From a virus (taxonomy: Duplodnaviria; Caudoviricetes), in the IMG/VR virus record IMGVR_UViG_3300020045_020339, positions 1 to 56,595 of that record: DNA of 56,595 nt. The stretch is one strand, 5' to 3'. Numbering within the stretch: position 1 is the stretch's first letter; each line of letters starts with the position of its first letter. A model generated the notes under the pieces. The model was not told the origin of the DNA, made no database searches, and saw nothing but the letters and a program-made list of their open reading frames with translations. Shown piece after piece: positions 29,908-48,019 of this stretch. Made by a program: the position numbers and the translations under genes.

Positions 29908-30007
29908 AATTACCGGCTCCCCGAAACCACGGATTTGTCAGGGAACCGCCAAGTGTGCGAGCGGCAAATCCGTATCTTGCCAACCAGTGTAAATTATAAA
30001 ACAAAAA

Positions 30008-30898: not shown

Positions 30899-30960
30899 AG
30901 CAGCGGTAGCTCGTCGGTCTCATAAACCGAAGGTCGTTGGTTCGAATCCATCCTTCGCAA
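30889..30960 (+). tRNA. tRNA-Met(CAT), initiator-derived, CCA not encoded
   Basis: Acceptor TGTGAAG/CTTCGCA, D-stem GAGC/GCTC, anticodon stem TCGGT/ACCGA with CAT at 30921-30923, TTCGAAT loop. Confidence 0.9.
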
Positions 30961-30973
30961 CAAATAATTTTAA

Positions 30974-31017
30974 TGAACCTAAAAGGTCGTGAGTGTAATG
31001 CTCCCGGCCTTTTTTTT
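30974..31017 (+). promoter_or_regulatory. Conserved leader hairpin, copy 1 (before portal)
   Basis: TGAACC-TA-AAAGGTC-N17-GGCCTTTT; same pattern at 47614. Confidence 0.7.
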
Positions 31018-31026
31018 ATTCAAAAA

Positions 31027-32535
31027 ATGAATTTAAAACAGGCAGGTAAAGAAATAATAAAAGGTAATATCGGCAATGCCTTTAGCCAGTTGTTGACACC
31101 ATCAACATACCGTGGCAATAGTCCGTTACCTTCTCCTGCTGTTCCGCTTGATGTAATGGCCTTTGGCGGTGATGGTGTTGGCGCCTTTTATAGTTGGAAT
31201 GGAATAGGCAGTTCTTTGACAGCATATGAAGAATGTCCGCCGTTAATGTCGGTGTGTAACCGCCGAGCCTTAGCATTTATCAATGCAACTATATCGGTAG
31301 TTAATAGCGCCGGTAAACCTTCTACCTCATCACAGAGTAAGCAGGTATTAAAGCGGCTGGCAAATCCTAATCCATTACAAACGACAGCAGCATTTTTAGC
31401 ACAGGTACATATTTACATTGATTTGGTAGGCTATGCAGTTATTGCACCTATAAGGCCTGTTGGTTTTGAAATGTATGAATCGGAAAGCCTTTGGGTAATA
31501 CCTCCAACATTATGCAGCCTTGGTTGTGATAGTACAGGATTGAATTTTACTACCGGCGGAATTGATTATGTGATGATAGGAGGCCGCAGGGTGAATACTT
31601 CAGATGTAATGATCATTACTGATATTAATCCATCCATCAGGGAAATGGTAATACCAGGTGCAAAAATCAAAAGCTTGGAATTGCCCATTAATAATATCAT
31701 AGGCGCTTACCAAAGTGAAAGCACATTGATAAAGCACAGGGGGCCAACGGGGTTAATAACAAACGAGATCAGTACGCAAATGGGTGCACCATTGCCTTTA
31801 TCCGATACCGAAAAGGCCAGAATACAGGCAGGCTTTAACCGGGCTTATGGCTTATTGAACGGACAAAGTCATGTTGTAATTACAAGTGCTGCATTAAAAT
31901 ATCAGAAAACTGGCTTCAATGCGGAAGAGCTTGGCCTGCATAAGACAATTGAAAACGGCACCAAAGCAATTTGTGATACGATCGGTTTCCCAACTGAGTT
32001 GATGGGTATCATCAACCCTACTTACAGCAACAAGGAAAGCGCTGATAAGGAGGTCTACACTAAATACATCATTCCTTCTGCAATCAGCATTGCTCAACAG
32101 CTTGGCAGCTACCTGTTGCCCATATCCGATAAGCTATGTTTTGATTATCGGCATGTACCTGAATTACAGCAGGACAAACAGAAAGAAGCGCAAGCCAGGA
32201 AGACTTTAATCGATAGCCTAAAAATAGAATTTGATTTGGATTTGATCACTCAAAACCAAATGTTGGAGCTGATGGGATTGCCGCCACTCGGTCCTGAAGG
32301 TGATTTAAGAAAATCACAAATACCTCCGGGCAATATTCCTTTAGCTGTTACACTTGGCGTTGGTGGCGTACAGGCTTTAACAGCAGTATTAGCTGCACAA
32401 GGTATTTCAGAAGAAGCAAGGCAGGCAACGCTTGAAGTAGTGTTTGGTTTGAAACCAGAAGATGCTAGAAGGATGAGTTCACAAGCTGCTACAGAAACAT
32501 CACAAAATTCATTACAAACCACCGCTCAACAATAA
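31027..32535 (+). CDS. Portal protein (HK97-like)
   Basis: ATG 31027; LANPNPLQT, GYAVI, AICDTIGFPTELMG and TYSNKESA segments; follows terminase. Confidence 0.88.
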   Translation: MNLKQAGKEIIKGNIGNAFSQLLTPSTYRGNSPLPSPAVPLDVMAFGGDGVGAFYSWNGIGSSLTAYEECPPLMSVCNRRALAFINATISVVNSAGKPSTSSQSKQVLKRLANPNPLQTTAAFLAQVHIYIDLVGYAVIAPIRPVGFEMYESESLWVIPPTLCSLGCDSTGLNFTTGGIDYVMIGGRRVNTSDVMIITDINPSIREMVIPGAKIKSLELPINNIIGAYQSESTLIKHRGPTGLITNEISTQMGAPLPLSDTEKARIQAGFNRAYGLLNGQSHVVITSAALKYQKTGFNAEELGLHKTIENGTKAICDTIGFPTELMGIINPTYSNKESADKEVYTKYIIPSAISIAQQLGSYLLPISDKLCFDYRHVPELQQDKQKEAQARKTLIDSLKIEFDLDLITQNQMLELMGLPPLGPEGDLRKSQIPPGNIPLAVTLGVGGVQALTAVLAAQGISEEARQATLEVVFGLKPEDARRMSSQAATETSQNSLQTTAQQ

Positions 32536-32900
32536 TGCAGACACTAATTATCATATCAGTAGTAATAATATTTTTTATCACAGCATGGATGTGTAAAAAG
32601 CAGTTGGTAAAAGTTCTTTTAAAACTGAAAGGCAAGCTGCATATTCAAAGCCTGCGTACTGCTATCAATGATGCTGATGCGGATAAAGAAAAAACCGATC
32701 GTAAGAATTTGGTAGTGTTCAATACATCTACCGGTGAATTTGAACCTGTGCAAAAAAGAATGCTGAAGGGTATTGCAAAAATGAAAAGCCAGAACAAAGT
32801 ACCGGCAGGTTTTAGGCAACCAAAGGCGGTAAAGAAATCAGCATTGACTTTACAAAAAGTGAAGCATGTTGAAAACAAATCATTATACGTAACTAAATAA
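32535..32900 (+). CDS. Basic protein with N-terminal TM
   Basis: TAATG coupling; LIIISVVIIFFITAW. Confidence 0.65.
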   Translation: MQTLIIISVVIIFFITAWMCKKQLVKVLLKLKGKLHIQSLRTAINDADADKEKTDRKNLVVFNTSTGEFEPVQKRMLKGIAKMKSQNKVPAGFRQPKAVKKSALTLQKVKHVENKSLYVTK

Positions 32901-32905
32901 TTTTT

Positions 32906-33064
32906 ATGTCAAATACCGGAAACTATTGCGGCTCACCTGAATTAAAACAGGCCTTAGCCGATAAAGATAAAAAGCCTGCACCTCTAGTTGATAAAGCTGC
33001 ATTGGCCGCATCAATTAAGGATAAGGAAAACAAAATTGCCAATAATCAAACCGTAAGAAAATGA
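32906..33064 (+). CDS. 52-aa hypothetical protein (not in ORF track)
   Basis: MSNTGNYCGSPELKQALADK...; ATGA overlap with the protease gene. Confidence 0.55.
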   Translation: MSNTGNYCGSPELKQALADKDKKPAPLVDKAALAASIKDKENKIANNQTVRK

Positions 33065-33930
33065 GCAAACCAACAATGAAAATCGGCGGCGTAACAGTAC
33101 CGCAAGGTTTAACTCAAAAAGAGTTATTAAAATTTCTTGTTGAAAATAAAAGTATCCTGATTGCTGAAAAGCGATCGGCTATCAAATATGCTGATGCCAT
33201 TGAGGTAGGAAGCAGTATAAAATACTTTGTTGATAAGGAAGGCAAACTTAATAAAGGTGTGTTGGAAGAAACTGCAAAGGCAGAGATCGGCGGTCCTGAA
33301 ACGGTCCTTTGTGTTATCAATACCACTAACTGGATGGATAGCCACAGTGATGTGCACATGCCAGGTATATGGAGTAAATCCATTAAAGAAAATAAAAGCT
33401 TCTTACATCTGCAGGAGCATCAAATGAAGTTTACCAACATCATCAGCGATGAGGCTAAAGGTTATACCGAATCAATGAGCTGGAAAGATCTTGGACTTGA
33501 TTTACCAGGTGTAACTGAAGCATTAATATTCGCTACTCCACTTAGTGGCCGTAACGAATATATGGAAGATCAGTATCGCAAAGGGTTTGTAAAAAACCAT
33601 AGTGTTGGAATGAGGTACGTGGTAATAAAATTATGTGTTAACGAACCAGAAGATGAATGGTACAAAGAAGAGTATGCTAACTGGGTTACCTATTCGCCAA
33701 AGGTAGCTAACCTGGTTGATGCCGAGGCGCAAGGTTATTTTTGGGCAGTGCTGGAGGCACAAATAATTGAAGGTAGTGCTGTACCAAAAGGCAGCAACAT
33801 CATAACACCAACGATTGGTTTTAAATCCGTTCAGCCGGCAGTAGCCACTGAAAAGAATGAGCCGGAGCAATCCACTCAGGTAAAGGAAGTAAACTGGGAT
33901 AAGGTGGGGGATTTTTTATTACAATCATAA
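33061..33930 (+). CDS. Prohead maturation protease
   Basis: DSHSDVH, HLQEH, NHSVGMRY and IEGSAV motifs; between portal and capsid. Confidence 0.78.
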   Translation: MSKPTMKIGGVTVPQGLTQKELLKFLVENKSILIAEKRSAIKYADAIEVGSSIKYFVDKEGKLNKGVLEETAKAEIGGPETVLCVINTTNWMDSHSDVHMPGIWSKSIKENKSFLHLQEHQMKFTNIISDEAKGYTESMSWKDLGLDLPGVTEALIFATPLSGRNEYMEDQYRKGFVKNHSVGMRYVVIKLCVNEPEDEWYKEEYANWVTYSPKVANLVDAEAQGYFWAVLEAQIIEGSAVPKGSNIITPTIGFKSVQPAVATEKNEPEQSTQVKEVNWDKVGDFLLQS

Positions 33931-33954
33931 TCAAAAAACAAAATCTTTTCAGAC

Positions 33955-35412
33955 ATGAAAAAGTTAAAAACAAATAAGTATTTGCTGGTTGGCCTTAGCA
34001 TACTTGTAACCGTTGCCCTATTTATTTTCGGGCAGCATGGCCATAATGAAGCTACTGGTATGGCTCTTGCAAATGCCGGTGCTGTAGTTACGTTGAGTGA
34101 AGCTGAAAAAGCAGGCTTTAATGAGCAGGAACAAAAAGTAATTCTTGCCGTTAAAAAGTATGCTGAACAAATGAAGGAAGGCATTACTGCCGGTTTAATC
34201 AGCAAAGATGAAATTGCCGGAATAATTGCTGGTACCAAGCTTGATAAAGAAGCTGGTGATGAAGCCAAAACTTTGAAAGAGCGCTTGGAAGAGTTAAAAG
34301 AAATTGCCCGTAAACAAGGCACTACTTTAACCGAATTAGGTTTAAAAATGAACGGCGTTGAAACTGGTAATAAATCTATTGCTCAGGTAATGGAAGAAAG
34401 CAAAGAGGATTTAAGGAAAATTTATACTGCTGGTTCTGGTGTTAAGCAGTTCATGATCTTGACAAATGAGAAAGGTCAATATGTTGCTCGTCCTTATGAT
34501 CCAACTAAAGCAGCTACACCTCATGCTACTATTGATAATATGAATGGTAACGGTGGTACAGCTTCTATTGCTCAAAGCATAAGTGCTGCTACTATTCTGC
34601 GTATGGGAGGCGATGCCCCAATACAAAGCCAGTATAGAAATACACCATGGATATTTGATTTGTGCAATTTGGTAAATGTTGGTATCGATGTTCCTTTTGC
34701 TATTTGGTATGATGAGCAAATAAAACAAGGATCTTCCGCTAATGTAGCTGAAGGTGTTACCAAACCAAAAACACAATATGCTTATGAACTGAAGAGTAGC
34801 AACTATAAAAAAGAAGCCACTCTTTTAGGATTCAGCGAAGAATTCTCTATGGATTTTGCCCGTCTGCAATCAGATATATTAGGCAAGGGTCGTACAGATT
34901 TGATTAATAGGATCAATGCTGCTGTATTGGTTAATGTAAAAGCTGCTGCAACTGCATACAGTACGCAAGCTCAATTTGGTTTAAGGCCTGCTGCTAACGT
35001 TAACGATTGGTTGGTACTAGCTGCAATGGCTGCCCAGGTTGACAATGCAACTTTTGGCGCTAATGCAAATGCTGCAATCATGAGCACCTTTAAAAAATAT
35101 AATCTTGGTACACAGCAAACCACTCAAAACGAATGGTTAGATGTTCCGAGCGTATTGCAGAATCTTGGTTTAGTTGGCAATCCTGATTTAGGTGCCGATG
35201 ATATCCTTGTAGGGGACTTCAAGCAATATAACATTTTGTTACGTGGTGGCTTGATAGTTAAGGTAGGCCATAACGGAACCGACTTTGCAGAAAATATGTA
35301 CAGCACAGTTATGGAGCAATTCTACTATGACTACATCAGTTCTTTAAGAACTCCTGCAATTGTTAAAGGTGCTGACTTTGCTACTGTTAAAACAGCGCTT
35401 ACTCAACCATAA
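33955..35412 (+). CDS. Major capsid protein (HK97 fold, with coiled-coil delta-like domain)
   Basis: VAEGVTKP, FSEEFSMD and ILVGDFKQY segments; follows the protease gene. Confidence 0.85.
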   Translation: MKKLKTNKYLLVGLSILVTVALFIFGQHGHNEATGMALANAGAVVTLSEAEKAGFNEQEQKVILAVKKYAEQMKEGITAGLISKDEIAGIIAGTKLDKEAGDEAKTLKERLEELKEIARKQGTTLTELGLKMNGVETGNKSIAQVMEESKEDLRKIYTAGSGVKQFMILTNEKGQYVARPYDPTKAATPHATIDNMNGNGGTASIAQSISAATILRMGGDAPIQSQYRNTPWIFDLCNLVNVGIDVPFAIWYDEQIKQGSSANVAEGVTKPKTQYAYELKSSNYKKEATLLGFSEEFSMDFARLQSDILGKGRTDLINRINAAVLVNVKAAATAYSTQAQFGLRPAANVNDWLVLAAMAAQVDNATFGANANAAIMSTFKKYNLGTQQTTQNEWLDVPSVLQNLGLVGNPDLGADDILVGDFKQYNILLRGGLIVKVGHNGTDFAENMYSTVMEQFYYDYISSLRTPAIVKGADFATVKTALTQP

Positions 35413-35436
35413 TTTTTAACCAAAATAATTTTCAAA

Positions 35437-35778
35437 ATGGAACACACAATCGATGCGACAGTTACAGTAACTCAACTGCCTTCAAGAACAGGACCTCAGT
35501 ATAAAAACCCGGGTGATGTATCATTCACAGTTAATTATGCAGAGGGGTATAGCGGCGCAAAATCATGGCCTAATGGTAAAGAGCTAACCGTTTCCAAAGA
35601 GGTAGCCGAAGATTTCACAGGTCGTGGAATTGGACACGTTACTCCGGAAGAAAAAGCGGAAGGAACACAACCAGAAGAGCTAACCGTTTCCAAAGAGGTA
35701 GCCGAAGATGATAAAGCATCTGAAGCTAATGATGGAAAGGAAGAGGTGAAAACCGAAAAGTTAAAAGGTAAAAAGTAA
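35437..35778 (+). CDS. Head-associated hypothetical protein with internal duplication
   Basis: 113 aa, ELTVSKEVAED occurs twice. Confidence 0.7.
   Translation: MEHTIDATVTVTQLPSRTGPQYKNPGDVSFTVNYAEGYSGAKSWPNGKELTVSKEVAEDFTGRGIGHVTPEEKAEGTQPEELTVSKEVAEDDKASEANDGKEEVKTEKLKGKK
35579..35709 (+). repeat. Exact 35-bp direct repeat
   Basis: AAGAGCTAACCGTTTCCAAAGAGGTAGCCGAAGAT at 35579-35613 and 35675-35709. Confidence 0.9.
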
Positions 35779-35836
35779 ATGCCGAATTAGTTGTGTGTTC
35801 TTAGTTTTTCAATTGATCATCATTAAAACATTTATA

Positions 35837-36268
35837 ATGAAAAAACTTTTTTTAATCGCTGGAATCGCTGCTTTATTTATAGCAGCCGTTCCTTCAATAT
35901 CTGTGAATGCACAGATGGCCGTGCCAAAGGCGATGACAACAACTGCCTTCGGTAACGTTATCGATACTGTTGATAATACCGAGCAGCATGTTACTACACC
36001 TGCTGACGGTCTTATCAAGAACTGGAAAGCTGGTGCTACTGCAATGGTAGTAGTAAAGAAAATTTCCGGAACAGTCGGCGGTACATTGGTATTGCAAGGT
36101 AGCATGGACGGTACCGAATGGGTAACCATAGGTTCTGCCGCTACCGTAACAGATGCTTCAAACAACTATTCATTTAATACTACTGTGAGGTATTATTATT
36201 TCCGAATCAGTTGGACAGGCACCGGTACCATGTCGGCCAGCTTTAGACCATACCTGTTTACTTACTAA
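35837..36268 (+). CDS. Beta-rich protein with Sec signal peptide in head module
   Basis: MKKLFLIAGIAALFIAAVPSISVNA-Q; LQGSMDGTEW...YYYFRISW. Confidence 0.75.
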   Translation: MKKLFLIAGIAALFIAAVPSISVNAQMAVPKAMTTTAFGNVIDTVDNTEQHVTTPADGLIKNWKAGATAMVVVKKISGTVGGTLVLQGSMDGTEWVTIGSAATVTDASNNYSFNTTVRYYYFRISWTGTGTMSASFRPYLFTY

Positions 36269-36277
36269 GTTTAAATC

Positions 36278-36949
36278 ATGGCACTATACGAACCATTCAT
36301 TGACAGAACATATTTTATCGGGCCAATAACTATTGGTCAGGTAGATCAGCAGGCAGTAGAAGATGAGCTAAACCTTTTTATTCGCAAACACGAGTACGAA
36401 TTTTTAGTTCAGCTTCTCGGTCTGCCCTTGTACAAATCATTTTATGAAGGAATGCAGGGTAATGCAGTTGATGAAAGGTGGAAGGCTATGGCATACGGCA
36501 GTTTCTTTTTGCTGGATGTAAACACAGTAAAAACCGGCTACAAAAGAAATTCAATGGGTGGTTCTTATTGCATACCCGTTGGAGAATATTACGATCAAAT
36601 GCCGGTTAGTTACAAAGGCCTTGTAAAGCGTCCTGATGGTGATGAAAACACCGACTTTTTAAGTGCTGGTTATGGTGCTGAAAGCCCAATTGCAAAGTAC
36701 GTGTACTACTACTGGATGATGAGCCATGCTTCCGTTAGCGGCGGCACAGGTGAAAGTATTCAGCAGGTACAGAATGGCCAGGCTATTACTAACAACCGTA
36801 AGATGATCAACGCATGGAATGAAATGTGTAATGAGGTAGAAACCTTTTACTTTTTTCTTGACATGCATATTGCTGATTATCCTGAGTTTAATTTGATACC
36901 TGATGCAAGATTTTCACCATTGCCAATAAACGAATTTAATCTGTTGTAA
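36278..36949 (+). CDS. Putative head-tail adaptor
   Basis: Position; EFLVQLLGLPLY and SPIAKYVYYYW...AWNEM segments. Confidence 0.6.
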   Translation: MALYEPFIDRTYFIGPITIGQVDQQAVEDELNLFIRKHEYEFLVQLLGLPLYKSFYEGMQGNAVDERWKAMAYGSFFLLDVNTVKTGYKRNSMGGSYCIPVGEYYDQMPVSYKGLVKRPDGDENTDFLSAGYGAESPIAKYVYYYWMMSHASVSGGTGESIQQVQNGQAITNNRKMINAWNEMCNEVETFYFFLDMHIADYPEFNLIPDARFSPLPINEFNLL

Positions 36950-37501
36950 ATGGTACCTGTAGTTAACATAGTAACGGAGGTGGTACAAAAGGTTAGCGTT
37001 GCAATTACGCCATACCTACAAACCATCAACAATAAATATGAAGGTGTTCGTTTCGATTATGGGCACCCGGCAGATATCATTGCAAAGATTGTTCAGTTTG
37101 GTCCAACAGAGGAAAACCGGTTTAAAAAATATCCATTGATCGGATTGTTTTTAGACTTTCCTCAAACCCGTGGCGTAAATAATGAAACGGAAACCCGGGT
37201 AAAATTGAGCATGTTTATTTGCATTGGAACGCAGGCAAACTACACACCACAGCAGCGTACGCAACAATCGTTTGTGCCAATATTAATACCGATCTATGAT
37301 GAACTGATGAAACAGTTTTTAAAACATAATGCAGTCATCAAACCGGAAAATTTAAAAATACCTCACGAATATGTAGAGCGCTACCAGTGGGGTAAAGGTG
37401 GATTGGAATATTATGACAATGGAAAGAAAAACGTTTTTAACGATTTCATTGATGCGATAGAACTGATCAACCTGGAACTGGATTTAAAAAACATTTGTTA
37501 A
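36950..37501 (+). CDS. Putative tail completion/terminator protein
   Basis: 183 aa directly upstream of tail tube; KYPLIGL segment. Confidence 0.5.
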   Translation: MVPVVNIVTEVVQKVSVAITPYLQTINNKYEGVRFDYGHPADIIAKIVQFGPTEENRFKKYPLIGLFLDFPQTRGVNNETETRVKLSMFICIGTQANYTPQQRTQQSFVPILIPIYDELMKQFLKHNAVIKPENLKIPHEYVERYQWGKGGLEYYDNGKKNVFNDFIDAIELINLELDLKNIC

Positions 37502-37520
37502 TCAAAATAAATTATTTCAC

Positions 37521-38450
37521 ATGAACGTAAATACTATTTCCTGTCTTGCACAGAATGCAAATACAGGATATGCAGACTGCCCTGTTCATATAAAATTTGA
37601 AGGGGCAATCGAAGTACCAGCCAGTAAGAGATTTACCAAGGCTGAAGTACAGGCATTAGGCACAACCCTGAATGCCATGATCATAAATGCTTCCAAAAGC
37701 AGCCGTGCATTTCCTTTTCCGCCATTCATTAAAGATGAAAGTACAGGAGGTGATCCCAACAATGTTGAGTTTGATAATGGAGAAGAAATTACTACCTGGG
37801 AGAACTATTACAAATTGAATTTCAGTTTTTATCGTGGTGGTTTGCCGTTAAGTAATGCATTACGTAGCCGTAATGGCCGTGACACAGCATTTCTTTTTTA
37901 TGGTAACGGTATTGTTTTCGGTACTACAATCAATGGCGAATATGCCGGCGTACCGGTGTATAATTTTTGGAGCACAGCAAAACCAGGTGCTTTCAAAAGA
38001 GAGAATGCATACAGCTGGAAAGGCTCAACTCCCGTTCCTTTCTTAACTGATAAGGTATGGTATGTAGAAGATGACTTTGGCGCTGCTGACCTTAAAGGTT
38101 TGCATATCGTTGATTTATCAACTACTACTACTCCGGAAGTAAGTGCAACCGGCCTTGCAATTCTTGATGTAAAAGAAAGAGGTTACGGTACCGATTACGG
38201 TGCATTGTACCCTACAGAATTGGCAGCAGTAACATGGACCTGTAAAAACAGGGCAACAGGTTTAGCAATTGTTGTAACTGGTGTAACCGTTGTAGGTGGT
38301 AAACTGAATGTTAACCTGGATGATACCGATCTTAACTATCCTGCAACTGGTGAATGGTTAACAATCGTTCCTCCAAATGTTACATCATTGATTGCAGGTG
38401 GTATTCTTAATGCAGAAATTGAGCCATTGGATATTAAAGTAACCGTTTAA
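37521..38450 (+). CDS. Putative major tail tube protein
   Basis: 309 aa, beta-rich, followed by a terminator; position in tail module. Confidence 0.6.
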   Translation: MNVNTISCLAQNANTGYADCPVHIKFEGAIEVPASKRFTKAEVQALGTTLNAMIINASKSSRAFPFPPFIKDESTGGDPNNVEFDNGEEITTWENYYKLNFSFYRGGLPLSNALRSRNGRDTAFLFYGNGIVFGTTINGEYAGVPVYNFWSTAKPGAFKRENAYSWKGSTPVPFLTDKVWYVEDDFGAADLKGLHIVDLSTTTTPEVSATGLAILDVKERGYGTDYGALYPTELAAVTWTCKNRATGLAIVVTGVTVVGGKLNVNLDDTDLNYPATGEWLTIVPPNVTSLIAGGILNAEIEPLDIKVTV

Positions 38451-38471
38451 AATTCTATTCCCTTTAAAAAT

Positions 38472-38504
38472 AAAAAGGCTGCTGCATAGGTAGCGGCCTT
38501 TTTT
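38472..38504 (+). terminator. Intrinsic terminator
   Basis: AAAAAGGCTGCT...AGCGGCCTTTTTT. Confidence 0.7.
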
Positions 38505-38517
38505 AAATCTTCCTTTT

Positions 38518-38826
38518 ATGATGCTCAATGATATCCAATTTAATATTGCATGGTGGTTAAAAACCTGCTCAACAGCAGACGCCTTTGCCGACCATCCAAA
38601 AAATAAACACCTCATCGACGGAAGAAAATGCAAACGGGAAGATCTGGTTTTATACTTCAATAAAATTTCCGGCCATGACAATCAAGGAGTACAACAAGAA
38701 GTTTCAGAAGCTGGACTTCAGCAAAGCAGTACAGCAGAGCATAGCGGCGAAGGCGTCACAGATAGCCGACCTGCAAGCGATACAAATGTCCAAAGGCCAA
38801 AAAAGAGACGGCAATCTAATGCCTGA
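38518..38826 (+). CDS. Hypothetical protein
   Basis: 102 aa; low-complexity C-terminus overlaps next gene. Confidence 0.5.
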   Translation: MMLNDIQFNIAWWLKTCSTADAFADHPKNKHLIDGRKCKREDLVLYFNKISGHDNQGVQQEVSEAGLQQSSTAEHSGEGVTDSRPASDTNVQRPKKRRQSNA

Positions 38827-39118
38827 TTATTCGGAGCGATCAATTAATGAATTTGGAAAAAAGCCCGGGCCATGGAGATTGAAAGAAACAGGTGCTTTTT
38901 ATTTGGGCATTACCGTTAAGGATATCAATGAAAAAGGATGGACGCTAACCAGTACCGATAGTAAAACTGCTATGCTGGAAAAGAAAGCCGGTAAAAGGAT
39001 CTTTGGTTTAAATGATGAAACACGGGCAGGCGGTTCAGAAAGTGAACCATTGGCAACCGGAATAATATTACCGGAATTAAAAAAGCAGATGGAAGCCCAA
39101 ACAGGATTAAAATTTTAA
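38675..39118 (+). CDS. Putative neck/tail-completion protein
   Basis: ATG 38675; RLKETGAFY and IFGLN segments typical of virion morphogenesis proteins. Confidence 0.6.
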   Translation: MTIKEYNKKFQKLDFSKAVQQSIAAKASQIADLQAIQMSKGQKRDGNLMPDYSERSINEFGKKPGPWRLKETGAFYLGITVKDINEKGWTLTSTDSKTAMLEKKAGKRIFGLNDETRAGGSESEPLATGIILPELKKQMEAQTGLKF

Positions 39119-39128
39119 ATGCTCCCCG

Positions 39129-39344
39129 ATGGAAAATGAAGGCTGTATAGGTTGTACTCAGCAGGCAATTGCCAACCGCAACCAAAAAACCATTACCCAA
39201 TTAGAAGCACAAAAATATACTAATGAAAAAAAGGTTAACACAGTTGTATATTTTGATGGTACAGTGTATCAATTTTGTGAAGAGCAAGCTGCCAGACAAA
39301 TGGCGCAAACAAATATCATCGGCTTATATACTCCACAACATTGA
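39129..39344 (+). CDS. Hypothetical protein
   Basis: 71 aa with N-terminal CxxC. Confidence 0.55.
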   Translation: MENEGCIGCTQQAIANRNQKTITQLEAQKYTNEKKVNTVVYFDGTVYQFCEEQAARQMAQTNIIGLYTPQH

Positions 39345-39909
39345 GACCTTACCATTATCAGCATTTATCGACTGCATTACAGGCCGATCATTGCAAGGTT
39401 TAATTATTTCCGGAAAACCATCACAAGATATTTTAAAGCTGAAATTTGACAGCATCACCATTGACTATTACGATATTATTGGTGGCGAAAGCAATACCAT
39501 TTATGCCGGGTTACTAAAAAGGAAAACACGTTTGCAATCAAAGCAAACTCAATTATATGCCATCATTAAAATATACCTTCTAAATAAAAGCCCTGAGTTG
39601 AAAAAGCTGATGAGTAAGAACGGTTTTTATTTTGAAAAAGATTTACCTGATAATATTCTCATCAAAAAATATGAAGCCTTTGCAAAAGGTATGGCTATCG
39701 ATCTGGAGCATGTAGAAAAAGATATTGCTAACTTTTTAAAGAGCAATGGAGGCGATGGCAAGCCGGTTACCAGAGAAACTTATATCAGCAATATTATTTC
39801 AATGGCAAAAGAAAATTTTATCGTTGATATCAATAAATCAACAGCTGAATATTATGCCTTAACGTTCAAAGCATTTAACCAATTTATGGAAATTAAAGCC
39901 GCAGCATAA
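39223..39909 (+). CDS. Putative tail assembly chaperone
   Basis: Directly upstream of tape measure, TAATG coupling; start uncertain. Confidence 0.55.
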   Translation: MKKRLTQLYILMVQCINFVKSKLPDKWRKQISSAYILHNIETLPLSAFIDCITGRSLQGLIISGKPSQDILKLKFDSITIDYYDIIGGESNTIYAGLLKRKTRLQSKQTQLYAIIKIYLLNKSPELKKLMSKNGFYFEKDLPDNILIKKYEAFAKGMAIDLEHVEKDIANFLKSNGGDGKPVTRETYISNIISMAKENFIVDINKSTAEYYALTFKAFNQFMEIKAAA

Positions 39910-42900
39910 TGCCAAATACAGATATTATATCAGACGTAGTAGCAAGTGAAGCATTTAAGAATGTAATAAAAATGCAGGAGGCGATGGATCTGCTGGAAAA
40001 GAAGTTTGTTTCCACTGCACAGGCTGCTGATATTGCTAATGCTGCCATATCCGGTTCAAAAGGAATTAAAGAACTACAGGCCGCTACTGCTAATTTAAAC
40101 ACCGAAAACGAACAGCTTTTAAAACTTGAAAAAGAAATTGCCAACACAGCAGCCAAACGTGCTATTGCTGAAAGTAATTTAGGTAAGGTGTTAGCAGAGG
40201 AAAAGCTGATGCTGGAGCAACTGAATAAAGAGAATAAGAACCGGGCAAAATTGCAGTTAACAGAAGCCGGTAGCCTAGCCCGTATAGATGCTGTTATACT
40301 TAAACTACAAGCCAGCCAGCGGGCTTTAAATCTTACCACTGATGAAGGGCAGAAAAAAAATGAGCTGTATAAAAAATCAATTGACAGGTTATCGGAAGCA
40401 AGAAAAAGAGATAGCGATTCGGTTACACAACAAAGATTAAACGTTGGTAATTACCAAGGTGCTGCAAAAACTATTGTTGAAGCCCTGGAAAAAGAAAAAA
40501 AGAAACTGGAAGAACTGCAAAAAATTAAAGTGCAGTATGCCAGTACATCATATAAGCCAGCTAATACAGGTGGCGCAAGTTCTAATACTATTAGTGGCGG
40601 CTTTGGTTTTGGTCAGGGCAACCGGTCCATGGATCAGATCAATAAAGAAATTGCTGAATCTACCACAAAATTTAAAGCACTACAGGCCATAGTTGATAAA
40701 CCACAATTTTTAAAAGTAACCGCTGGAGCTGGTGATGCTACAAAGCAATTAGCCTTTTTAAGGAAAGAATTAATTAATCTGGAAGTAAATGGATTGGGTG
40801 ATTCGCAGGCGGCAAATGATTTACGTAAAAGCTTAGCTGAATTAACCGACCAAATTGCTGATGCAAAGCAGGAAGTAAAAGCATTGTCTTCTGATACCCG
40901 TGGTATGGATTTATTTGCAGGATCTGTTTCTTTTGCTGCTGATGTTTTCCAAACAGCCGCTGGTGCAGCAGTATTATTTGGCGCTAGTGAAGAAGATGCT
41001 GCTGAAGCTACAAGAACTCTAGTAGCAATTCAATCTATCTCTAACGGTGTAAAAGGAATAGGTAATGAATTAACTACCCGTGGTACGGCCGCAAACTTAG
41101 TTTATACAGTAGGGCAAAGAGCTTTTGCAACAGCGACAGATGCAAGTGCAGCGGCTCAATTGAGACTTGCAGCAGCTTCAAAGTTACTATTTGGATTAGG
41201 TATTGCGGCAGGCATAGCCTTTCTTATAATTAAAATTATTCAATATAGAAACGCTGCAAGAGAAGCTGCAAGGGAAAGTCTGCTTATGGCAGAGGTAAAT
41301 AAAAAAGTAGCGGAATCGGCAGGACAAGAACTTGCTAGCCTTAGCGCTCTTTATAAAGTTGCCACCAATACTACTTTATCAATTAAGGAACGGAAAAAGG
41401 CAGTCAATGAATTGCAGGATCAATATCCAGATTATTTTAAAAATATAAAAGATGAGGTTATTCTGCAAGGGAAAGCAGCGGATGCTTATGATAAAACAAA
41501 ACTTGCAATTTTAGAAACTGCTAAAACAAGGGCTATTGAATCAAAGCTAGCTGAATTAGCTTCTAAAGAATTGCAAATAACTTTTGATAATGAAGATAAG
41601 GCATTAGCAAAGAGGGATGCAATGACGCAAGATAGAATTAACAAGCAAAAATTAGCAGCAAAAAAAGCAAGTGGGGATGGTAGCGGAATTTCACCTGAAG
41701 CTTTCTTAGCTGGACAGGGTGCAGTAGATGCTATTAATGAAAGTTTAACTGAATCAAATAAAGAACTTGCTGACATCGCAAAAGACAGAGCATTTTTATT
41801 AGGTCAAATTACTTCATCAGGAATCGCAAAACCTAAAGAAGAGAAGGTAGATAATAAAGCATTAAATGCTGCCAAAAAGATGGCAGATGAATTGGCAAAA
41901 TTTAACAGTAAACTTTCTGCTGATGAATTAAAAGCAAAGCAAGCCGTAGACCAACTCAAATTAAAACAAGCTTCCGATACCTTTAAAAGAATTGCTGATG
42001 ATGAGAAAGCTTCATTGCAGGAAAGGCTAATAGCTAATGGCTTTTATTATGGAGCACTTCAAAAAACAATAACCAATAATGCAGAGTTTGAAAAACAGCA
42101 ACTGATAAACGGTACCATAAAAGAAAAAGAAGAAATATTAAAGAGAAAACTTAGCCAACAGGAAAAAGCGGATCTTCTTTTACAAATCAATAATCAGCTT
42201 GTTGCGATAGAAAAGAAAACGCAGGATGAAATTGGGCAGGTTTACCGTGATGGCATTGCTAATCAGAAGAAGTTGATAGAAGAGAATGTTGCCATGCAGA
42301 TTGAAGCATTAACAAAAGCATCAGCTGGCAGGATTTCTCAAATCAATACTGCCGAGTCTTTGGAATTAATAGCGCTAGAGGATAAGTATAAAAATGGTAA
42401 TGTAACATTTGAAGATTATGAAAAGGAGAGACTAAAAATTCAAGAGGCTTATTCTTTAAAAAGATTAGAGGATGAATTAAATACTGCTGAAAAGTTACTT
42501 AAAATAGCAAAGGCTGCTGGCAATGATACCAAAAAAGCAGAAGAGGATATTGCAGCAATTAAATTAAAAATTAAGGAAAATACAAGTGCTGCATCAAAGA
42601 CGAAAAATAAAAAGGAGTTACAGGATGAAATTGAATTACTGAAGAAAAAGAAAGATTTGTGGATGGAGTTAGGAATGACTTTAAAAGATACAGTATTCTC
42701 CTTTATTGATTCCGGTTTTGAGCGCCAAAAAAATACCCTTGAAAAAGAAAAGACATTAATTGATGAAAGAAGAGATGCAGAATTAGCCCGTATAAATAAA
42801 CTGAATATTAGTGAAGCGGATAAAGCCGATAAAATAAAAATACTTGATGCTAATGTTCAGGCGCAAAAAGAAGCTATTGCCCGTAGGCAAAAACAAATTG

Positions 42901-43469
42901 ATATTCAAAAGGCAAAGGCTGATAAGGTAAAAGCAATATTTGATATTGGAATAAATACGGCTGTTGCTATAATGAAAGTTGCGCCTAATGCTGTTTTAAT
43001 GGCACTTACCGCTGCAATTGGTGCCTTACAATTAGCCGCTGTTATTGCCCGGCCTATTCCTGAATACTGGACTGGTACCGATGATAGTAAAGGTGGCCCA
43101 GTATGGTTAGGTGAGCGTGGTAAAGAGTTATTGATCACCCCGGATAATAAGGCTTTTGAAACACCTGGTACCGCAACACTGGCAAATATTCCTGCACATA
43201 GTAAAGTAATCAACAATACCGAGTATATGCGAATGATAAGGGATAATGAAATAAACACGGTAACAAAAAATAATCGTCCGGTTGATGAGCGGGCATTCCT
43301 GCAATGGCAAACAAAGCAAGCTGAAAAAAATACTGAAGAAATTGTTAACGCAATTAAAAATGCTCCACAGGTTATAAATAAAATTTCACCATACGGTATT
43401 GAATCTTTCAAAAAGAGTGGACAAAGTTGGAATGAATACATTGATAAAAAAGTTCGTTTTAAAAATTAA
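39909..43469 (+). CDS. Tape measure protein
   Basis: 1186 aa helical A/K/E-rich, RLNVGNY motif, hydrophobic segments, C-terminal WLGERGKELL. Confidence 0.9.
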   Translation: MPNTDIISDVVASEAFKNVIKMQEAMDLLEKKFVSTAQAADIANAAISGSKGIKELQAATANLNTENEQLLKLEKEIANTAAKRAIAESNLGKVLAEEKLMLEQLNKENKNRAKLQLTEAGSLARIDAVILKLQASQRALNLTTDEGQKKNELYKKSIDRLSEARKRDSDSVTQQRLNVGNYQGAAKTIVEALEKEKKKLEELQKIKVQYASTSYKPANTGGASSNTISGGFGFGQGNRSMDQINKEIAESTTKFKALQAIVDKPQFLKVTAGAGDATKQLAFLRKELINLEVNGLGDSQAANDLRKSLAELTDQIADAKQEVKALSSDTRGMDLFAGSVSFAADVFQTAAGAAVLFGASEEDAAEATRTLVAIQSISNGVKGIGNELTTRGTAANLVYTVGQRAFATATDASAAAQLRLAAASKLLFGLGIAAGIAFLIIKIIQYRNAAREAARESLLMAEVNKKVAESAGQELASLSALYKVATNTTLSIKERKKAVNELQDQYPDYFKNIKDEVILQGKAADAYDKTKLAILETAKTRAIESKLAELASKELQITFDNEDKALAKRDAMTQDRINKQKLAAKKASGDGSGISPEAFLAGQGAVDAINESLTESNKELADIAKDRAFLLGQITSSGIAKPKEEKVDNKALNAAKKMADELAKFNSKLSADELKAKQAVDQLKLKQASDTFKRIADDEKASLQERLIANGFYYGALQKTITNNAEFEKQQLINGTIKEKEEILKRKLSQQEKADLLLQINNQLVAIEKKTQDEIGQVYRDGIANQKKLIEENVAMQIEALTKASAGRISQINTAESLELIALEDKYKNGNVTFEDYEKERLKIQEAYSLKRLEDELNTAEKLLKIAKAAGNDTKKAEEDIAAIKLKIKENTSAASKTKNKKELQDEIELLKKKKDLWMELGMTLKDTVFSFIDSGFERQKNTLEKEKTLIDERRDAELARINKLNISEADKADKIKILDANVQAQKEAIARRQKQIDIQKAKADKVKAIFDIGINTAVAIMKVAPNAVLMALTAAIGALQLAAVIARPIPEYWTGTDDSKGGPVWLGERGKELLITPDNKAFETPGTATLANIPAHSKVINNTEYMRMIRDNEINTVTKNNRPVDERAFLQWQTKQAEKNTEEIVNAIKNAPQVINKISPYGIESFKKSGQSWNEYIDKKVRFKN

Positions 43470-43471
43470 GT

Positions 43472-45832
43472 ATGCAAGGCCCAAAATTCAAATACTACTT
43501 TAAAAATCAGGCAGGATTATACTACTTTATTGATGAGCTCGATACAGTACAGGTAACTGTTTCTAAAACGGAAATAGTTCATGCCCCAAAAGGATGGATG
43601 GAGATGATTGCCGGCCTTATGCATAACACCAAACGAAAAGGCAATTTTAAAAAAATAAGTACACCACTGCAGTTTGTAATTGATGGTAAAAAAATACTGG
43701 ATTATATCGCCGCATACGAGGGTACCCAAGGCTATCTTGATTTTGTAATTGAGCAACAAGTGCCGGATGATTTTAGTTATACACTTTTCTTTAATGGTAC
43801 CATCGATTTTGAAGAGTATGTTTTTGGCGATGTATTTAGTACTGCCAATATACGGGAGCAAACATTGCTTGATATTATTGAAGCAAAAGGATCTGTAGTT
43901 TATGAAATTATTCTGGATGATACCAATGCGGTAGATGTGCAGGAAGATGGTATAAACCTCCATTATAAAACGCTGGATACTGTTGTAGATGGATTTGGTA
44001 CCAGCAGCAGTTGGAATACGGGCAGGCATATTGTAGAATTAATTGAAGCCAGCAGCGAAAACCCATATACAAAACCAACAACAAGAACAAAATATACTAA
44101 TCATCCCGGTGATGTGCCTGGTACTAATGGAGAGTTTTATGTTGCTGAGGTAGCAGGAAATTTAAAAATAGAATTTGATTATAAAGTTTTTGTAAAATGG
44201 ACGGATTCGGGCAGTGTACCTGGTCCGGGCAGTGCATTGCGTTATGATATTTTAAAAAGAAAAGTTGATGGTTCATTTTTTAATAATATAATTTATCAGG
44301 TTCTAGGGCAAACTAATATTTTTTCAGTATCCTACTTAACAGGTAAACTACATCATATAGTTGGATCAATAAATTTAACGCTTGATCCTGGCGATAAGCT
44401 TTATTTATGTTGCAATGTTTCGGGCATGAATGCTTTAGCACAACCCTGCATGACAACCTATCAGGATAGTCCCGCAGAATTTATTATCGACAGCCTACAA
44501 AGATCACCGGCAACCATGCACAAAGCAATAAGGCCATATAAACTTTGGCAGGAACTAATTGCTAAAGCAACCAACGGTGCATATGGTGCTATAAGCCCTT
44601 TTCTTTTTGCCAATAATAATCTTATTCTTATTCCGGGTTCATCTTTACGTGGCGATGCGGTTATCAGCATTAAAACAACTTTGGATGAATTTTTAAAATA
44701 CTGTTGGGTAAATCATGTTGCTGTAATTACTGATATTATTGGGCAAAATGGAGAGATAAAACATTTTGCCGATACTTTTATTGATGCAGAAGTAATGCAA
44801 CTGGGGGAGGTAGCTAATTTTGAATGGTCATTTAGCAAAGAGCATCATGTAAGTACTATAAAAGTGGGGTACGAAAACATTGATTTTGGAGTAGATAATC
44901 AGATCAATGGTAAAGATGAGTTTAATCAAACCAATCATTTTACTACCGGGCAGGATAAGCTGAAAGCGGAATATGATATTGTAAGTCCATACATTGCCAG
45001 CATGTATGCCCACGAATTATTGAGGGTAAATTTTGGCAACAGAAAAACTACCGATAACAAAAGTGATAATAAAGTTTTTATACTGGATGCAGAGCAGGGT
45101 ACAGATGTGCAATGGTACAATGGGCCTTTTACTGTAGATGCTGTTAATAGAAGAATAATAATTCCTAAAGCACTTTCAAATGTTCCGCCAACAATTACAA
45201 TCAGCAATGCTGCAGCAAACAACGGTGTATTTACAGTGCAATCTGTTTCTGTAGTAGGCAATACAACCACTATACAATTGCCTTTAATACTGGTTTTAAC
45301 AGCAGGCAATTTTTCCGGCCTCATTTCTTATTTTGATGCCGCCGTTTATCAGCCCAGAAGGCCGGCATTTGTAACCGTAACAGGATTGCTTGATCCTGCA
45401 AGTGCTTTTAATATTGAAATAAGTCCTAAGCATTTACTGTTGCTTCATGCCGCAATAATAAGTGCTGGTGTTTACAACAGTACTGCCAATGCTGCATTGG
45501 ATACCCTTAAATTTCAAAGCGGCGATAAGAATGTATTACTTTCTGTTTCTTATGATAATGTAGCATTTGTAACAGAAAATGCTGATGAATTATTGAGCCT
45601 GTTGCCTCAGCCGCATTATATTCCAGTAGTCTTCACTTTCGAAACTGACTACCGCTCCGATATCTATACTTTTATGCAGGGCACTAATAAATACAGGTAT
45701 ATAAGTTTTACATGGAAAGGAATAAACCTCAGTGGTTATGTTTTGGATATTACCAACAATCCTGATAATGATGCAAAACAAAAATGGAAACTATTAAGTA
45801 CCGCCACACCTAACATTTTAAATTTAATATAA
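43472..45832 (+). CDS. Tail tip/hub protein
   Basis: 786 aa directly after TMP. Confidence 0.65.
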   Translation: MQGPKFKYYFKNQAGLYYFIDELDTVQVTVSKTEIVHAPKGWMEMIAGLMHNTKRKGNFKKISTPLQFVIDGKKILDYIAAYEGTQGYLDFVIEQQVPDDFSYTLFFNGTIDFEEYVFGDVFSTANIREQTLLDIIEAKGSVVYEIILDDTNAVDVQEDGINLHYKTLDTVVDGFGTSSSWNTGRHIVELIEASSENPYTKPTTRTKYTNHPGDVPGTNGEFYVAEVAGNLKIEFDYKVFVKWTDSGSVPGPGSALRYDILKRKVDGSFFNNIIYQVLGQTNIFSVSYLTGKLHHIVGSINLTLDPGDKLYLCCNVSGMNALAQPCMTTYQDSPAEFIIDSLQRSPATMHKAIRPYKLWQELIAKATNGAYGAISPFLFANNNLILIPGSSLRGDAVISIKTTLDEFLKYCWVNHVAVITDIIGQNGEIKHFADTFIDAEVMQLGEVANFEWSFSKEHHVSTIKVGYENIDFGVDNQINGKDEFNQTNHFTTGQDKLKAEYDIVSPYIASMYAHELLRVNFGNRKTTDNKSDNKVFILDAEQGTDVQWYNGPFTVDAVNRRIIIPKALSNVPPTITISNAAANNGVFTVQSVSVVGNTTTIQLPLILVLTAGNFSGLISYFDAAVYQPRRPAFVTVTGLLDPASAFNIEISPKHLLLLHAAIISAGVYNSTANAALDTLKFQSGDKNVLLSVSYDNVAFVTENADELLSLLPQPHYIPVVFTFETDYRSDIYTFMQGTNKYRYISFTWKGINLSGYVLDITNNPDNDAKQKWKLLSTATPNILNLI

Positions 45833-47538
45833 TGGATCCTTACATTCTAATACCAGATCTCAATCCTGTCAAATACGTTAAAAAAGATGTAGCTGATACA
45901 GACAATATTTATCTTTTTGATAAGTACAATTACGAGCATACAGTGCAACGTTTTGAAGGCTATAGAGATTATACTCAAAAATGGGTTAATAAGGATTTGG
46001 TAAGGCAGCAAATATGGAGCAGTGGTGTAGATATTTGTAATATAGATTTGGTGGATTGCAATGGCGTAGTCATTCAAAATTACCCTGGCAATATTGCGCT
46101 GCCCAATTTTATAATTAATGGCACCAGTTACAATATTATTCAGTTTGATACCGATACCACATTATTGGCCACCGGCAGATGTTTCTTTATAATAAATTAT
46201 ACCGTAACCGGCGATGCTAATACTTATAAATTAATAAGTGAGCCGCAAGAAATAGTTGCTGAATTAAAGCCAAGCATACTTTTAAAATACAGCAACACGG
46301 TTAATGAATTCAATACCATTTTTAAAACGTCATTTGGCAGTTTTTTTGAGCAGCATTTTTATTTAAGGGTAGAAGGCAGGGTGGTTGCTGATAAGCCAAA
46401 TGTGGTGAGGCAAACTTATGAGGATCAGATTTTAGATCTTACTCAGCTTAATGCAAAACCATTCGACACTTTTAAATTTAAATTTGGCAGCGGCGCCGGT
46501 ATTCCAAAATGGATGGGCAGTAAGTTAAACATGGCTATTGCTTGTAATACTGTTTCAGCAGATAATATACAATTTACTTTTTTAGAAGAGTTGGAAGAAA
46601 AGAATAGCGGGTATTATACCAGATACCTTTATGAAATTGTTGCCAGATATAAGGAGATAAAGTACGTAAAGCAACATTTTGTACCATCTGAACCGGGTGG
46701 AATAGGTCCATTTACTTTACCAGATGGCATTGAAACAGTAGCCTACAGTTTTATCTATAGTTTATCAGGCATGCAACCATTTAGTTTAGGCGCAATAACT
46801 AAACCGGCATGGATGACGGTAATAATATCCGGTAATAAATTGATATTTGGCGGCACACCTGCAAATAGTGATGTGGGTACTAATATTTCGGTATCAGTTG
46901 TAGTTACTAATGCTACAGGCTCTATAACATTAGCTGATTTAATTGATGTGCTTGCAATTGCAGCATGTGTACCAGTTTCCTTTACTTTATTACCCAAATT
47001 ACCTTCTGCTGTAGCTGGTCAGCCTTATTTGGCATCAATACCATTAGCAGGTACAGCACCATATATTTTAAGTAGTGTTGTTAAACCAGCCTGGGCAACA
47101 GTATCAGCATCATTAACAGGCATCGATATATCAGGTACTCCAACAGTGCCTGCTGCTGATGTGGAATTTAGCTTTGATATTAGCAATTGTGGTGGCGGTC
47201 CTGCTAATACTATCAATTTTTCACAATTTATTAATGTTACATCAGGCATAATCATTACAGGTACAACCAGTTTTGATCTTGCAACAGCTTCAGGATCTGG
47301 TAATATAATTGCAATACCTGGTACACTGGTAACAGTAAATATTGAAGCTCAAGGTATAGCAGGCGAAACATTTACATTAGATACCGCTATAGTAGGTGCC
47401 GGCGTAACTGGTTCAACCAATGTTACTAATGGATTAACAACTTATACTTTTGTAATGCCTGCAATGGGTAATGTGGCATGGAGTGCAACATACACTGCAA
47501 CTGATCCTGCAGGAAGTGGATCAATATCTGTATCGTAA
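45832..47538 (+). CDS. Tail protein with C-terminal Ig-like repeats
   Basis: Two similar units (LPDGIETVAYS...KPAWMTV...GTP and LPSAVAGQPYL...KPAWATV...GTP). Confidence 0.65.
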   Translation: MDPYILIPDLNPVKYVKKDVADTDNIYLFDKYNYEHTVQRFEGYRDYTQKWVNKDLVRQQIWSSGVDICNIDLVDCNGVVIQNYPGNIALPNFIINGTSYNIIQFDTDTTLLATGRCFFIINYTVTGDANTYKLISEPQEIVAELKPSILLKYSNTVNEFNTIFKTSFGSFFEQHFYLRVEGRVVADKPNVVRQTYEDQILDLTQLNAKPFDTFKFKFGSGAGIPKWMGSKLNMAIACNTVSADNIQFTFLEELEEKNSGYYTRYLYEIVARYKEIKYVKQHFVPSEPGGIGPFTLPDGIETVAYSFIYSLSGMQPFSLGAITKPAWMTVIISGNKLIFGGTPANSDVGTNISVSVVVTNATGSITLADLIDVLAIAACVPVSFTLLPKLPSAVAGQPYLASIPLAGTAPYILSSVVKPAWATVSASLTGIDISGTPTVPAADVEFSFDISNCGGGPANTINFSQFINVTSGIIITGTTSFDLATASGSGNIIAIPGTLVTVNIEAQGIAGETFTLDTAIVGAGVTGSTNVTNGLTTYTFVMPAMGNVAWSATYTATDPAGSGSISVS

Positions 47539-47572
47539 AAAAATAACTCAATTAAATTAATACAAAAAGTAT

Positions 47573-47580
47573 TATTTTTG
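47573..47580 (+). promoter_or_regulatory. Bacteroidota -7 promoter box
   Basis: TATTTTTG in AT-rich intergenic region upstream of the leader hairpin. Confidence 0.5.
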
Positions 47581-47613
47581 AATAGGTAAAGTAAAAAACT
47601 AAAAATATTTTTT

Positions 47614-47662
47614 TGAACCGCAAAGGTCATGGCTTAATTGCCCATGGCCTTTTATTTTTTTT
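47614..47662 (+). promoter_or_regulatory. Conserved leader hairpin, copy 2 (before tail-fibre operon)
   Basis: TGAACC-GC-AAAGGTC-N17-GGCCTTTT; same pattern at 30974. Confidence 0.7.
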
Positions 47663-47665: not shown

Positions 47666-48019
47666 ATGTCAACCATTAACGCAAACATTGCAGCAGAAGT
47701 AAATTTCACCATGCGTAAAGGAGATACTTATGATCTTCCTTTTGAGTTTGAAAATGCTGATGAAAGTCCGTTATCATTAGTAGGCGCATCTATCCTTTGG
47801 CAGTTTAGAAAAACAAATAAAGAGGGAGATCTTTTGCAAACAGTTACCCAGGCTATTGGCGGTGCTATTGTAGCGCCTAATAAATTTCAGCCAAATTTTA
47901 TTGTGGCAATGCCGGCTGGCACACACTATACAGATTTTCAAATAACATTTCCTTCCGGTAAAATTTCAACTTTTTTTGAAGGGAAAGTTACTGTAGTACA
48001 AGATGTAAGTAACTCATGA
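47666..48019 (+). CDS. BppU N-terminal-like baseplate/fibre adaptor
   Basis: RKGDTY...PLSLVGA...[11 protein letters not shown]...[12 protein letters not shown] pattern. Confidence 0.6.

Follow-up and report, generated by a model that had tools for sequence, protein, structure and literature searches.

The window examined here, that is, the whole 56,595-bp stretch of DNA, is a complete virus record with direct terminal repeats (IMG/VR record IMGVR_UViG_3300020045_020339, Caudoviricetes), and the phage is temperate as read from its gene content. Two short elements, starting at positions 30,974 and 47,614, each consist of a conserved flank followed by a terminator-like hairpin and lie in the leader of a block of late genes (Table 1). 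Copy 1 is followed by the portal gene; behind copy 2, the first gene is succeeded by one for a collagen-repeat protein and by large open reading frames (ORFs), which are presumably the tail fibres. A small gene for a Com-like zinc-ribbon protein lies 5' of copy 1, and the original prediction, made from the letters of the window, held that its product acts on both hairpins as a switch for the late genes. Relatives preserve this succession of a small zinc-ribbon gene, a hairpin and late genes, and we take it as a hint of a read-through switch under protein control that has not been described before.

Both copies were found to be built as the original prediction had described them. TGAACC lies at 30974-30979 and 47614-47619, AAAGGTC at 30982-30988 and 47622-47628, and GGCC at 31006-31009 and 47646-47649; each copy has a 17-nucleotide (nt) insert, a U.G wobble (GGUC/GGCC) and, next to it, a pair that is G-C in one copy and A-U in the other. 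Between the end of GGCC and the start codon there are 17 nt in copy 1 (ATG at 31027) and 16 nt in copy 2 (ATG at 47666), and copy 2 does follow shortly upon a promoter box (TATTTTTG). TAAT, which the original prediction noted in both loops, is not conserved, the loops of relatives being GAAA or TAAAT. In all, 21 invariant bases are common to the two copies. Their folds have energies of -17.0 kcal/mol (z -3.96, copy 1) and -17.4 kcal/mol (z -3.23, copy 2) against 200 shuffles, and both have the shape of an intrinsic terminator, a GC-rich stem-loop followed by a U-tract of 8 U in copy 1 and UUUUAUUUUUUUU in copy 2. A simple terminator scan missed both because of an internal mismatch in the stem. 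Exact matches to the first 15 nt of the element number two in the window; allowing up to two mismatches gives 5 occurrences where 1.13 are expected, a number reached in 0 of 100 shuffles. A possible third, diverged copy (5308-5345) may be due to chance; it belongs to a strong terminator 3' of an HNH endonuclease gene, falls within the last part of the integrase ORF (minus strand) in its listed extent, and no plus-strand gene follows it.

A coding reading of the copy 1 hairpin, as implied by a public gene call that starts at 30973, was rejected, since the extension is unconserved in 18 homologs and the reading frame of the ATG behind copy 2 does not run through that copy. In alignment A1 (18 rows) the conserved portal N-terminus starts at the Met of position 31027 in every row. 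The spurious extension in the window's own record amounts to 18 residues translated from the terminator, and the public portal calls for P0001, P0003, P0005, P0010 and P0012 likewise place the start codon (ATG or other) inside the hairpin or flank.

To establish the distribution of the element, a pattern with the 21 specified bases was scanned over three whole public collections: genome_contigs, viral_contigs and the JGI metagenomes. The genome_contigs collection (596 billion bases) yielded 7 matches scattered over unrelated taxa, among them Salinicoccus, Ochrobactrum, Clostridia and Nitrospirota, which we take as background. With only 7 matches in that volume of sequence, two copies in 56.6 kb are not a matter of chance, and a host repeat element was rejected in view of the scatter of these matches across unrelated phyla. 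The two matches in viral_contigs (L039 and the contig of L002) both show the order Com-like gene, hairpin, portal gene. Among the 6 matches in the JGI metagenomes, L048 and L050 are identical in sequence, and L045 and L049 are GC-rich and unrelated. The other two are L046 and L047. L046 is a relative of the window by tblastx, in which a homolog of the window's 568-aa ORF is followed by a TACATTTG box, the hairpin 11 nt on, and a homolog of the window's 1073-aa ORF; this is the same junction as that of copy 2. The 21-base motif is thus, on these scans, lineage-specific.

Within this lineage, 6/6 family members have an unchanged flank (TGAACC), 5'-arm base (AAAGGTC) and closing sequence (GGCCTTTT), and all keep the U.G wobble. 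The inner stems and loops differ among all six, with pairing retained by compensation, and MAFFT columns keep no single register because the inner stems vary in length around an invariant outer motif. The proteins that flank the motif are merely about 50-70% identical among relatives; invariance of the flank and lower stem therefore indicates that the outer element is under sequence-specific selection. On the opposite strand the U.G wobble would be an A/C mismatch, which points to the sense-strand RNA as the form that is selected.

A survey of gene order in relatives was carried out with the portal alignment A1, which retrieved 37 viral loci, 34 of them with upstream sequence; with the window and L039 added, 36 loci were compared. 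An initial portal scan with single-sequence peptide patterns had found no relatives. The tallies include manual additions, and the loci reduce to about 24 distinct leader types once kin are merged (e.g., L005-L014, L007=L008, L017=L018). At 31 of the 36 portal loci, a strong hairpin and U-run come after a small zinc-ribbon gene; L030 has the hairpin and no zinc-ribbon ORF that could be found (1/36), and L003, L020 and L023 have neither (3/36). The gap from hairpin to next ATG measures 7-17 nt at these 31 loci, with the exception of L029 (34 nt). At seven loci (L016, L022, L024, L025, L031, L033, L036) this next gene encodes a small membrane protein and overlaps the portal start, so that the hairpin tracks the start of the operon rather than the portal gene as such. 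At the L009 locus, the zinc-ribbon gene and the hairpin are separated by an HNH-type ORF.

Promoter boxes of the type TAnnTTTG were found in 0/30 loci between the stop of the zinc-ribbon gene and the next ATG, and in 8/30 loci within 90 nt upstream of the zinc-ribbon gene (expected about 0.03 per 90 nt), a placement that fits a single transcription unit. In the Com-negative relatives L003 and Polaribacter phage Freya_1, the portal gene has its own TATATTTG promoter box, and Freya_1 has a separate terminator about 100 nt further upstream. The portals of cultured Polaribacter phages are about 30% identical to that of the window, and these phages lack the cassette. A tblastn search with the Com-like protein among phage records found nothing.

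Some of these loci have features of their own. The -7 boxes of L039 (1599-1620), L024, L032 and L037 end 5-17 nt before the zinc-ribbon start codon, which would give com mRNAs with very short leaders or none. In L009 (3274-4010) the intervening sequence encodes an HNH/NUMOD-like homing endonuclease, apparently split in two ORFs, and a perfect GAGCTCC half-site is kept 10 nt 5' of the hairpin. L027 (2101-2161) contains a direct repeat, GCCCTCGCGGCAA twice, in the 59-nt gap 5' of its portal gene, in place of a hairpin.

The Com-like protein of the window is a four-cysteine zinc ribbon (CxxC ... CxxC) whose Cys18, Cys21, Cys39 and Cys42 are invariant in alignment A3 (3 rows); the four columns are also invariant in alignment A4 (16 rows). 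It matches PHROG 6417, named 'translational regulator', with E=3.9e-5, and comparison of the window-clade profile with that of the syntenic zinc-ribbon family gives an hhalign probability of 97.5% (E=4.8e-12). Among the syntenic proteins, L019 (32.9 bits), L032 (34.2 bits) and L034 (24.0 bits) score above the Pfam cutoff for Com (PF10122, Zn_ribbon_Com), and 6/16 match this family at E<=0.01. A sequence search of the PDB with the window protein returned no Com entry, the best match being eS27 (E=0.0088).

The flanks were compared with the RNA target of Com from phage Mu. According to PMC6483171, this target is a short C-G-closed hairpin with CC(N)2-3GAG in its loop, located 5' of and proximal to the structure that inhibits mom translation, and SELEX with Com yielded GAG(N)2CC, a motif in two parts. 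Leaders from sister clades come close to this target: the hairpin begins with GCGCCCC-AA-GAGGGCC at its 5' base in L004, L017 and the L005 group, L022 and L034 have CC-AG-GAG, and L031 has two perfect GAGCGCC half-sites. As we read the leaders, CC(N)2-3GAG stands in exact form directly against the stem in L004, L012, L017, L022, L024, L034 and the L005 group. A perfect GAGNNCC opens the 5' arm in 8/20 leader representatives, and 4/20 more match at 4/5 specified positions. Among 167 sites with a hairpin and T-run in the same genomes, the perfect motif occurs 5 times, and 4/5 of these are leaders; the sole non-leader site is at position 96 (+) of the window (AGAGCGCC...), within ORF 2-205. In the window clade, where the element reads TGAACC-NN-AAAGGTC, both the 7-2-7 layout and the order CC-NN-purine are preserved, and L019, whose protein has a bona fide Com domain, has GAACC ... 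AAGGTC with the same wobble.

In 23/24 leader types the flank can also pair with the first bases of the terminator 5' arm, as in GCCC[CAAGA]GGGC (L005 group), GCACC[CCAGA]GGUGC (L012) and GA(A)CC[5 nt]GGUC (window). L012 has matched changes in flank, 5' arm and 3' arm. Native flanks have a mean pairing energy of -4.10 kcal/mol; when flanks were swapped among leader types, the mean was -3.07 +/- 0.37 kcal/mol, and a value as low as the native one was obtained in 5/2000 permutations (p about 0.0025). Shuffled flanks gave -2.20 +/- 0.35 kcal/mol and were as low as native in 0/2000. The U in GGUC would be kept because it pairs with the A of GAACC in this mini-hairpin and with G in the terminator. 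The leaders can thus form an antiterminator-like alternative hairpin that overlaps the 5' arm of a terminator, as in an RAT-type arrangement.

Com-family protein-dependent antitermination of the late operons is the best reading of these data, although we judge its chances of being right or wrong to be about equal. From the sequences, folds, conservation, synteny, flank-arm complementarity and the family assignment of the relatives' proteins, we infer binding, termination and read-through as follows. The sites would be intrinsic-terminator-like hairpins in two 5' leaders, that of the head operon, which runs from the portal gene onward, and that of the tail-fibre operon. Both hairpins would have a recognition element of defined sequence, made up of the TGAACC flank and the AAAGGUC base of the 5' arm. 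Transcription from a promoter 5' of the Com-like gene (copy 1) or from the 47573 box (copy 2) would normally halt at the hairpin and U-tract. The zinc-ribbon protein encoded just 5' of copy 1 would bind the nascent RNA and clamp the GA(A)CC/GGUC mini-hairpin, C-G-closed around a 5-nt purine-rich loop. With the base of its 5' arm withheld in this way, the terminator could not abut the U-tract, and RNA polymerase would enter the late genes. Since the com gene precedes its own terminator, the cassette would act as a feed-forward timer. On this reading the second copy, behind its own promoter box, would gate the tail-fibre operon in this lineage, in addition to the gating of the head operon by copy 1.

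Several findings weigh against antitermination by the Com-like protein. The window protein reaches E=0.0011 and 18.9 bits against PF10122, under the gathering cutoff of 22.9, its tie to the family coming from PHROG 6417 and the profile comparison. The flank in the window has CC-NN-AAA in place of CC(N)2-3GAG and agrees with GAGNNCC at just 3/5 positions. The start codon is not sequestered by the stem as it is in Mu, the stems ending 16-17 nt (window) or 7-34 nt (relatives) before the ATG. The window mini-hairpin (C-G-closed, 5-nt loop) is weak, at -3.1 to -3.7 kcal/mol versus -17 for the terminator, and a protein clamp is therefore indispensable to the model. The co-occurrence of element and Com-family gene that the original prediction looked to holds as gene plus hairpin at the 31 loci and breaks at L027, which has the gene without the hairpin (1/36); the survey counts are not independent events, as many loci are close relatives, and the same order would also arise if the hairpin merely terminated the com gene. 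In L047 the motif lies 3' of a glycine-rich ORF on a 1362-nt contig for which tblastx gave no match in the window. Regulons with two targets are not general, since G002, a complete genome of a more distant relative, has a single hairpin of this kind. The proposed switch for late genes is favoured in part, by the kept gene order, the invariant flank with its compensated inner stems, the Com motif of the sister clades, the flank-arm pairing and the lack of another regulator in the PHROG scans, and is weakened by the sub-threshold protein, the non-consensus flank, the start codon outside the stem and the single site of G002.

The features of the window are collected in Table 1. Copy 1 is separated from the Com-like gene by a gene for tRNA-Met, whose first 10 nt coincide with the end of the Com-like ORF (30889-30898); it is not at this spot in L039 and L002. 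The original prediction had the order of Com-like gene and copy 1 right and overlooked this intervening gene. An Rfam scan of the window found nothing besides the tRNA. About 1.1 kb 5' of the tRNA-Met/Com-like overlap, an RNA-ligase-like gene is located at 29172-29768 (phrog_14301, E=1.8e-62). It is followed by an extended imperfect inverted repeat at 29870-30650 with arms of about 220 nt, including a perfect 17-nt pair (29910-29926/30567-30583); the arms enclose a minus-strand 86-aa ORF (30180-30440) that overlaps a dubious 97-aa plus-strand ORF. A hairpin at 29779-29815 has a GCCCGGCTCCCC core similar to this repeat. Because the repeat block and the RNA-ligase-like gene are missing between terminase and com in L039 and L002, they look like an inserted module. 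The original prediction had also stated that no other late activator is recognisable, and this held in PHROG scans of 50 ORFs, which contained no other activator, sigma factor or antiterminator, many ORFs being without a known family. A look-up of the phage's sequence words in public sequencing runs gave small shares in 3 DNA runs, and no RNA run was listed.

Table 1. Features of the window that bear on the two leader hairpins.
Feature	Position	Strand	Basis or remark
Serine integrase	5226-6806	minus	PHROG-type ORF scans
Possible third, diverged copy, TGTACC-GC-AAAGGGC and 13-bp terminator	5308..5345	+	2 mismatches; may be chance
CI-like repressor	7766-8524	minus	PHROG-type ORF scans
Terminase large subunit	27688-29145		PHROG scan
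Com-like zinc-ribbon gene, 74 aa, Cys18, Cys21, Cys39, Cys42	30674..30898	+	Pfam, PHROG, hhalign
tRNA-Met (CAT)	30889..30961	+	ARAGORN; Rfam RF00005, 65.8 bits
Copy 1, conserved flank and 5'-arm base, TGAACC-TA-AAAGGTC	30974..30988	+	sequence
Copy 1, terminator-like hairpin (30981-31013) and 8-U tract (31010-31017)	30981..31017	+	fold; ends 9 nt 5' of portal ATG
Portal gene, first gene 3' of copy 1	31027..32535	+	PF04860, E=7e-20
Capsid gene	33955-35412		Pfam scan
Bacteroidota-type -7 promoter box (TAnnTTTG), TATTTTTG	47573..47580	+	33 nt 5' of copy 2
Copy 2, conserved flank and 5'-arm base, TGAACC-GC-AAAGGTC	47614..47628	+	sequence
Copy 2, terminator-like hairpin (47622-47652) and U-rich tract to 47662	47622..47662	+	fold
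First gene 3' of copy 2, 117 aa, phrog_1084 (unknown function)	47666..48019	+	PHROG scan

The two hairpins may also be plain intrinsic terminators or attenuators, copy 1 ending the com/tRNA transcript and copy 2 the tail operon, with the late genes supplied by constitutive partial read-through; the flank would then serve a host factor, RNA processing or 3'-end stability, and the zinc-ribbon protein would be unrelated in role. The canonical terminator shape, the tRNA gene directly before copy 1, the near-copy at 5308, which lies at a convergent gene junction with no plus-strand gene after it, and the form AAAGG...CCTTTT, which other terminators of the window share, all agree with this. We nevertheless regard it as rather unlikely, because there is no room for a promoter between hairpin and ATG, in line with the lack of boxes there in all 30 loci, and an unregulated strong terminator before the most needed structural genes, in copy 2 only 33 nt after a promoter box, makes little sense. 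It also leaves unaccounted for a flank that is invariant next to proteins of 50-70% identity, and a motif that is specific to leader hairpins (4/5 perfect GAGNNCC sites among the 167 hairpins). A role at the level of DNA appears very improbable; here a regulator would recognise flank and lower stem as an imperfect inverted repeat in the duplex, either by Q-like loading at a promoter or as a zinc-finger activator of the Ogr/Delta type. Small zinc-finger late activators do occur in P2-like phages, the complementarity of flank and arm is identical in DNA, and copy 2 and L046 lie downstream of promoter boxes. However, box and motif are variably spaced (by 33 nt, by 11 nt or, at copy 1, by a whole gene) where motif and hairpin keep a constant spacing, the conserved U.G wobble can pair in the sense-strand RNA only, the matching protein family is one of RNA binders, and no Q-like protein was found in the PHROG scans of the 50 ORFs.

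The protein may, alternatively, act on translation as Com does in Mu, the hairpin limiting access of the 30S subunit to the A/U-rich stretch before the start codon and the Com-like protein, bound to the flank, opening the lower stem and lifting translation of the first late gene, so that control would not fall on transcription. Such an effect could be combined with antitermination. The only role known for the Com family is activation of translation, through binding to a short hairpin located 5' of an inhibitory structure (PMC6483171), and the name of PHROG 6417 agrees with this. The hairpin ends 7-17 nt from the ATG in most loci, and some of the U-rich leader is paired in the stem. On the other side, the start codon is never within the stem, unlike in the Mu structure, and lies 23 nt (L046) and 25 nt (L047) beyond GGCC, too far for occlusion; a GC-rich stem with a U-run directly behind it marks an intrinsic terminator, and control of the first gene's translation alone would not gate a whole operon. 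We consider translational activation on its own a distinctly unlikely account.

To our knowledge, how Bacteroidota phages turn on their late genes is largely unknown. If Com-family antitermination is correct, the cassette of promoter, small RNA-binding protein gene, protein-sensitive terminator and late operon would be a portable answer to late-gene switching, and the role of the Com family would be widened beyond mom translation, the one function documented for it. In a broader form, which we hold to be possible at somewhat less than an even chance, Com-family zinc-ribbon proteins would be a widespread, unrecognised class of phage antiterminators that bind RNA in a sequence-specific manner, each encoded before its own 'Com-box' terminator and timing the structural genes in a large Bacteroidota-type clade, with the phage of the window having extended the scheme to a regulon of head and tail-fibre genes. 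A search of the literature, outside of subscription journals and supplements, turned up no description of terminators or late operons under the control of a Com-family protein. For annotation, the cassette would serve as a landmark for the start of the late operon, and it accounts for the recurrent false N-terminal extensions in portal gene calls.

Among known systems, that of Q and PR'-tR' in phage lambda is similar in that the regulator gene lies just before the terminator preceding the late genes, and in that a promoter box is followed by a terminator within 11-33 nt (copy 2 and L046), so that a short terminated RNA would be expected without the regulator. It differs in that the 50 ORFs contain no Q homolog in PHROG scans and that the distance from promoter to motif is variable here; the conserved element is tied to the hairpin and not to the promoter, and recognition is predicted to be of RNA, not of a DNA Q-binding element. 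Mu Com/mom (PF10122) differs in its target, which is mom and not a structural late operon, and in its inhibitory hairpin, which here is a terminator with a U-tract and leaves the start codon outside; the window further has the motif CC-NN-AAAGG, a sub-threshold protein and two targets per genome. The two systems have in common a small four-cysteine zinc-ribbon gene immediately 5' of the target and, as predicted for the leaders here, a short C-G-closed hairpin 5' of, and coupled to, an inhibitory hairpin. In the sister clades, the flanks have CC(N)2-3GAG and GAGNNCC as in the SELEX motif, and three syntenic proteins pass the Pfam cutoff.

In the BglG/SacY/LicT systems, a protein-stabilised RAT hairpin overlaps a terminator, and the regulators have CAT/PRD domains. 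The protein considered here is, in contrast, an unrelated zinc ribbon, and no CAT/PRD-domain family was found in the Pfam or PHROG scans of the window ORFs; it is encoded by the phage and has no sugar or phosphorylation input as far as seen. What the two would share is the design of the leader, in which a small alternative hairpin uses bases of the 5' arm of an intrinsic terminator and needs a protein clamp to prevail against that far more stable structure.

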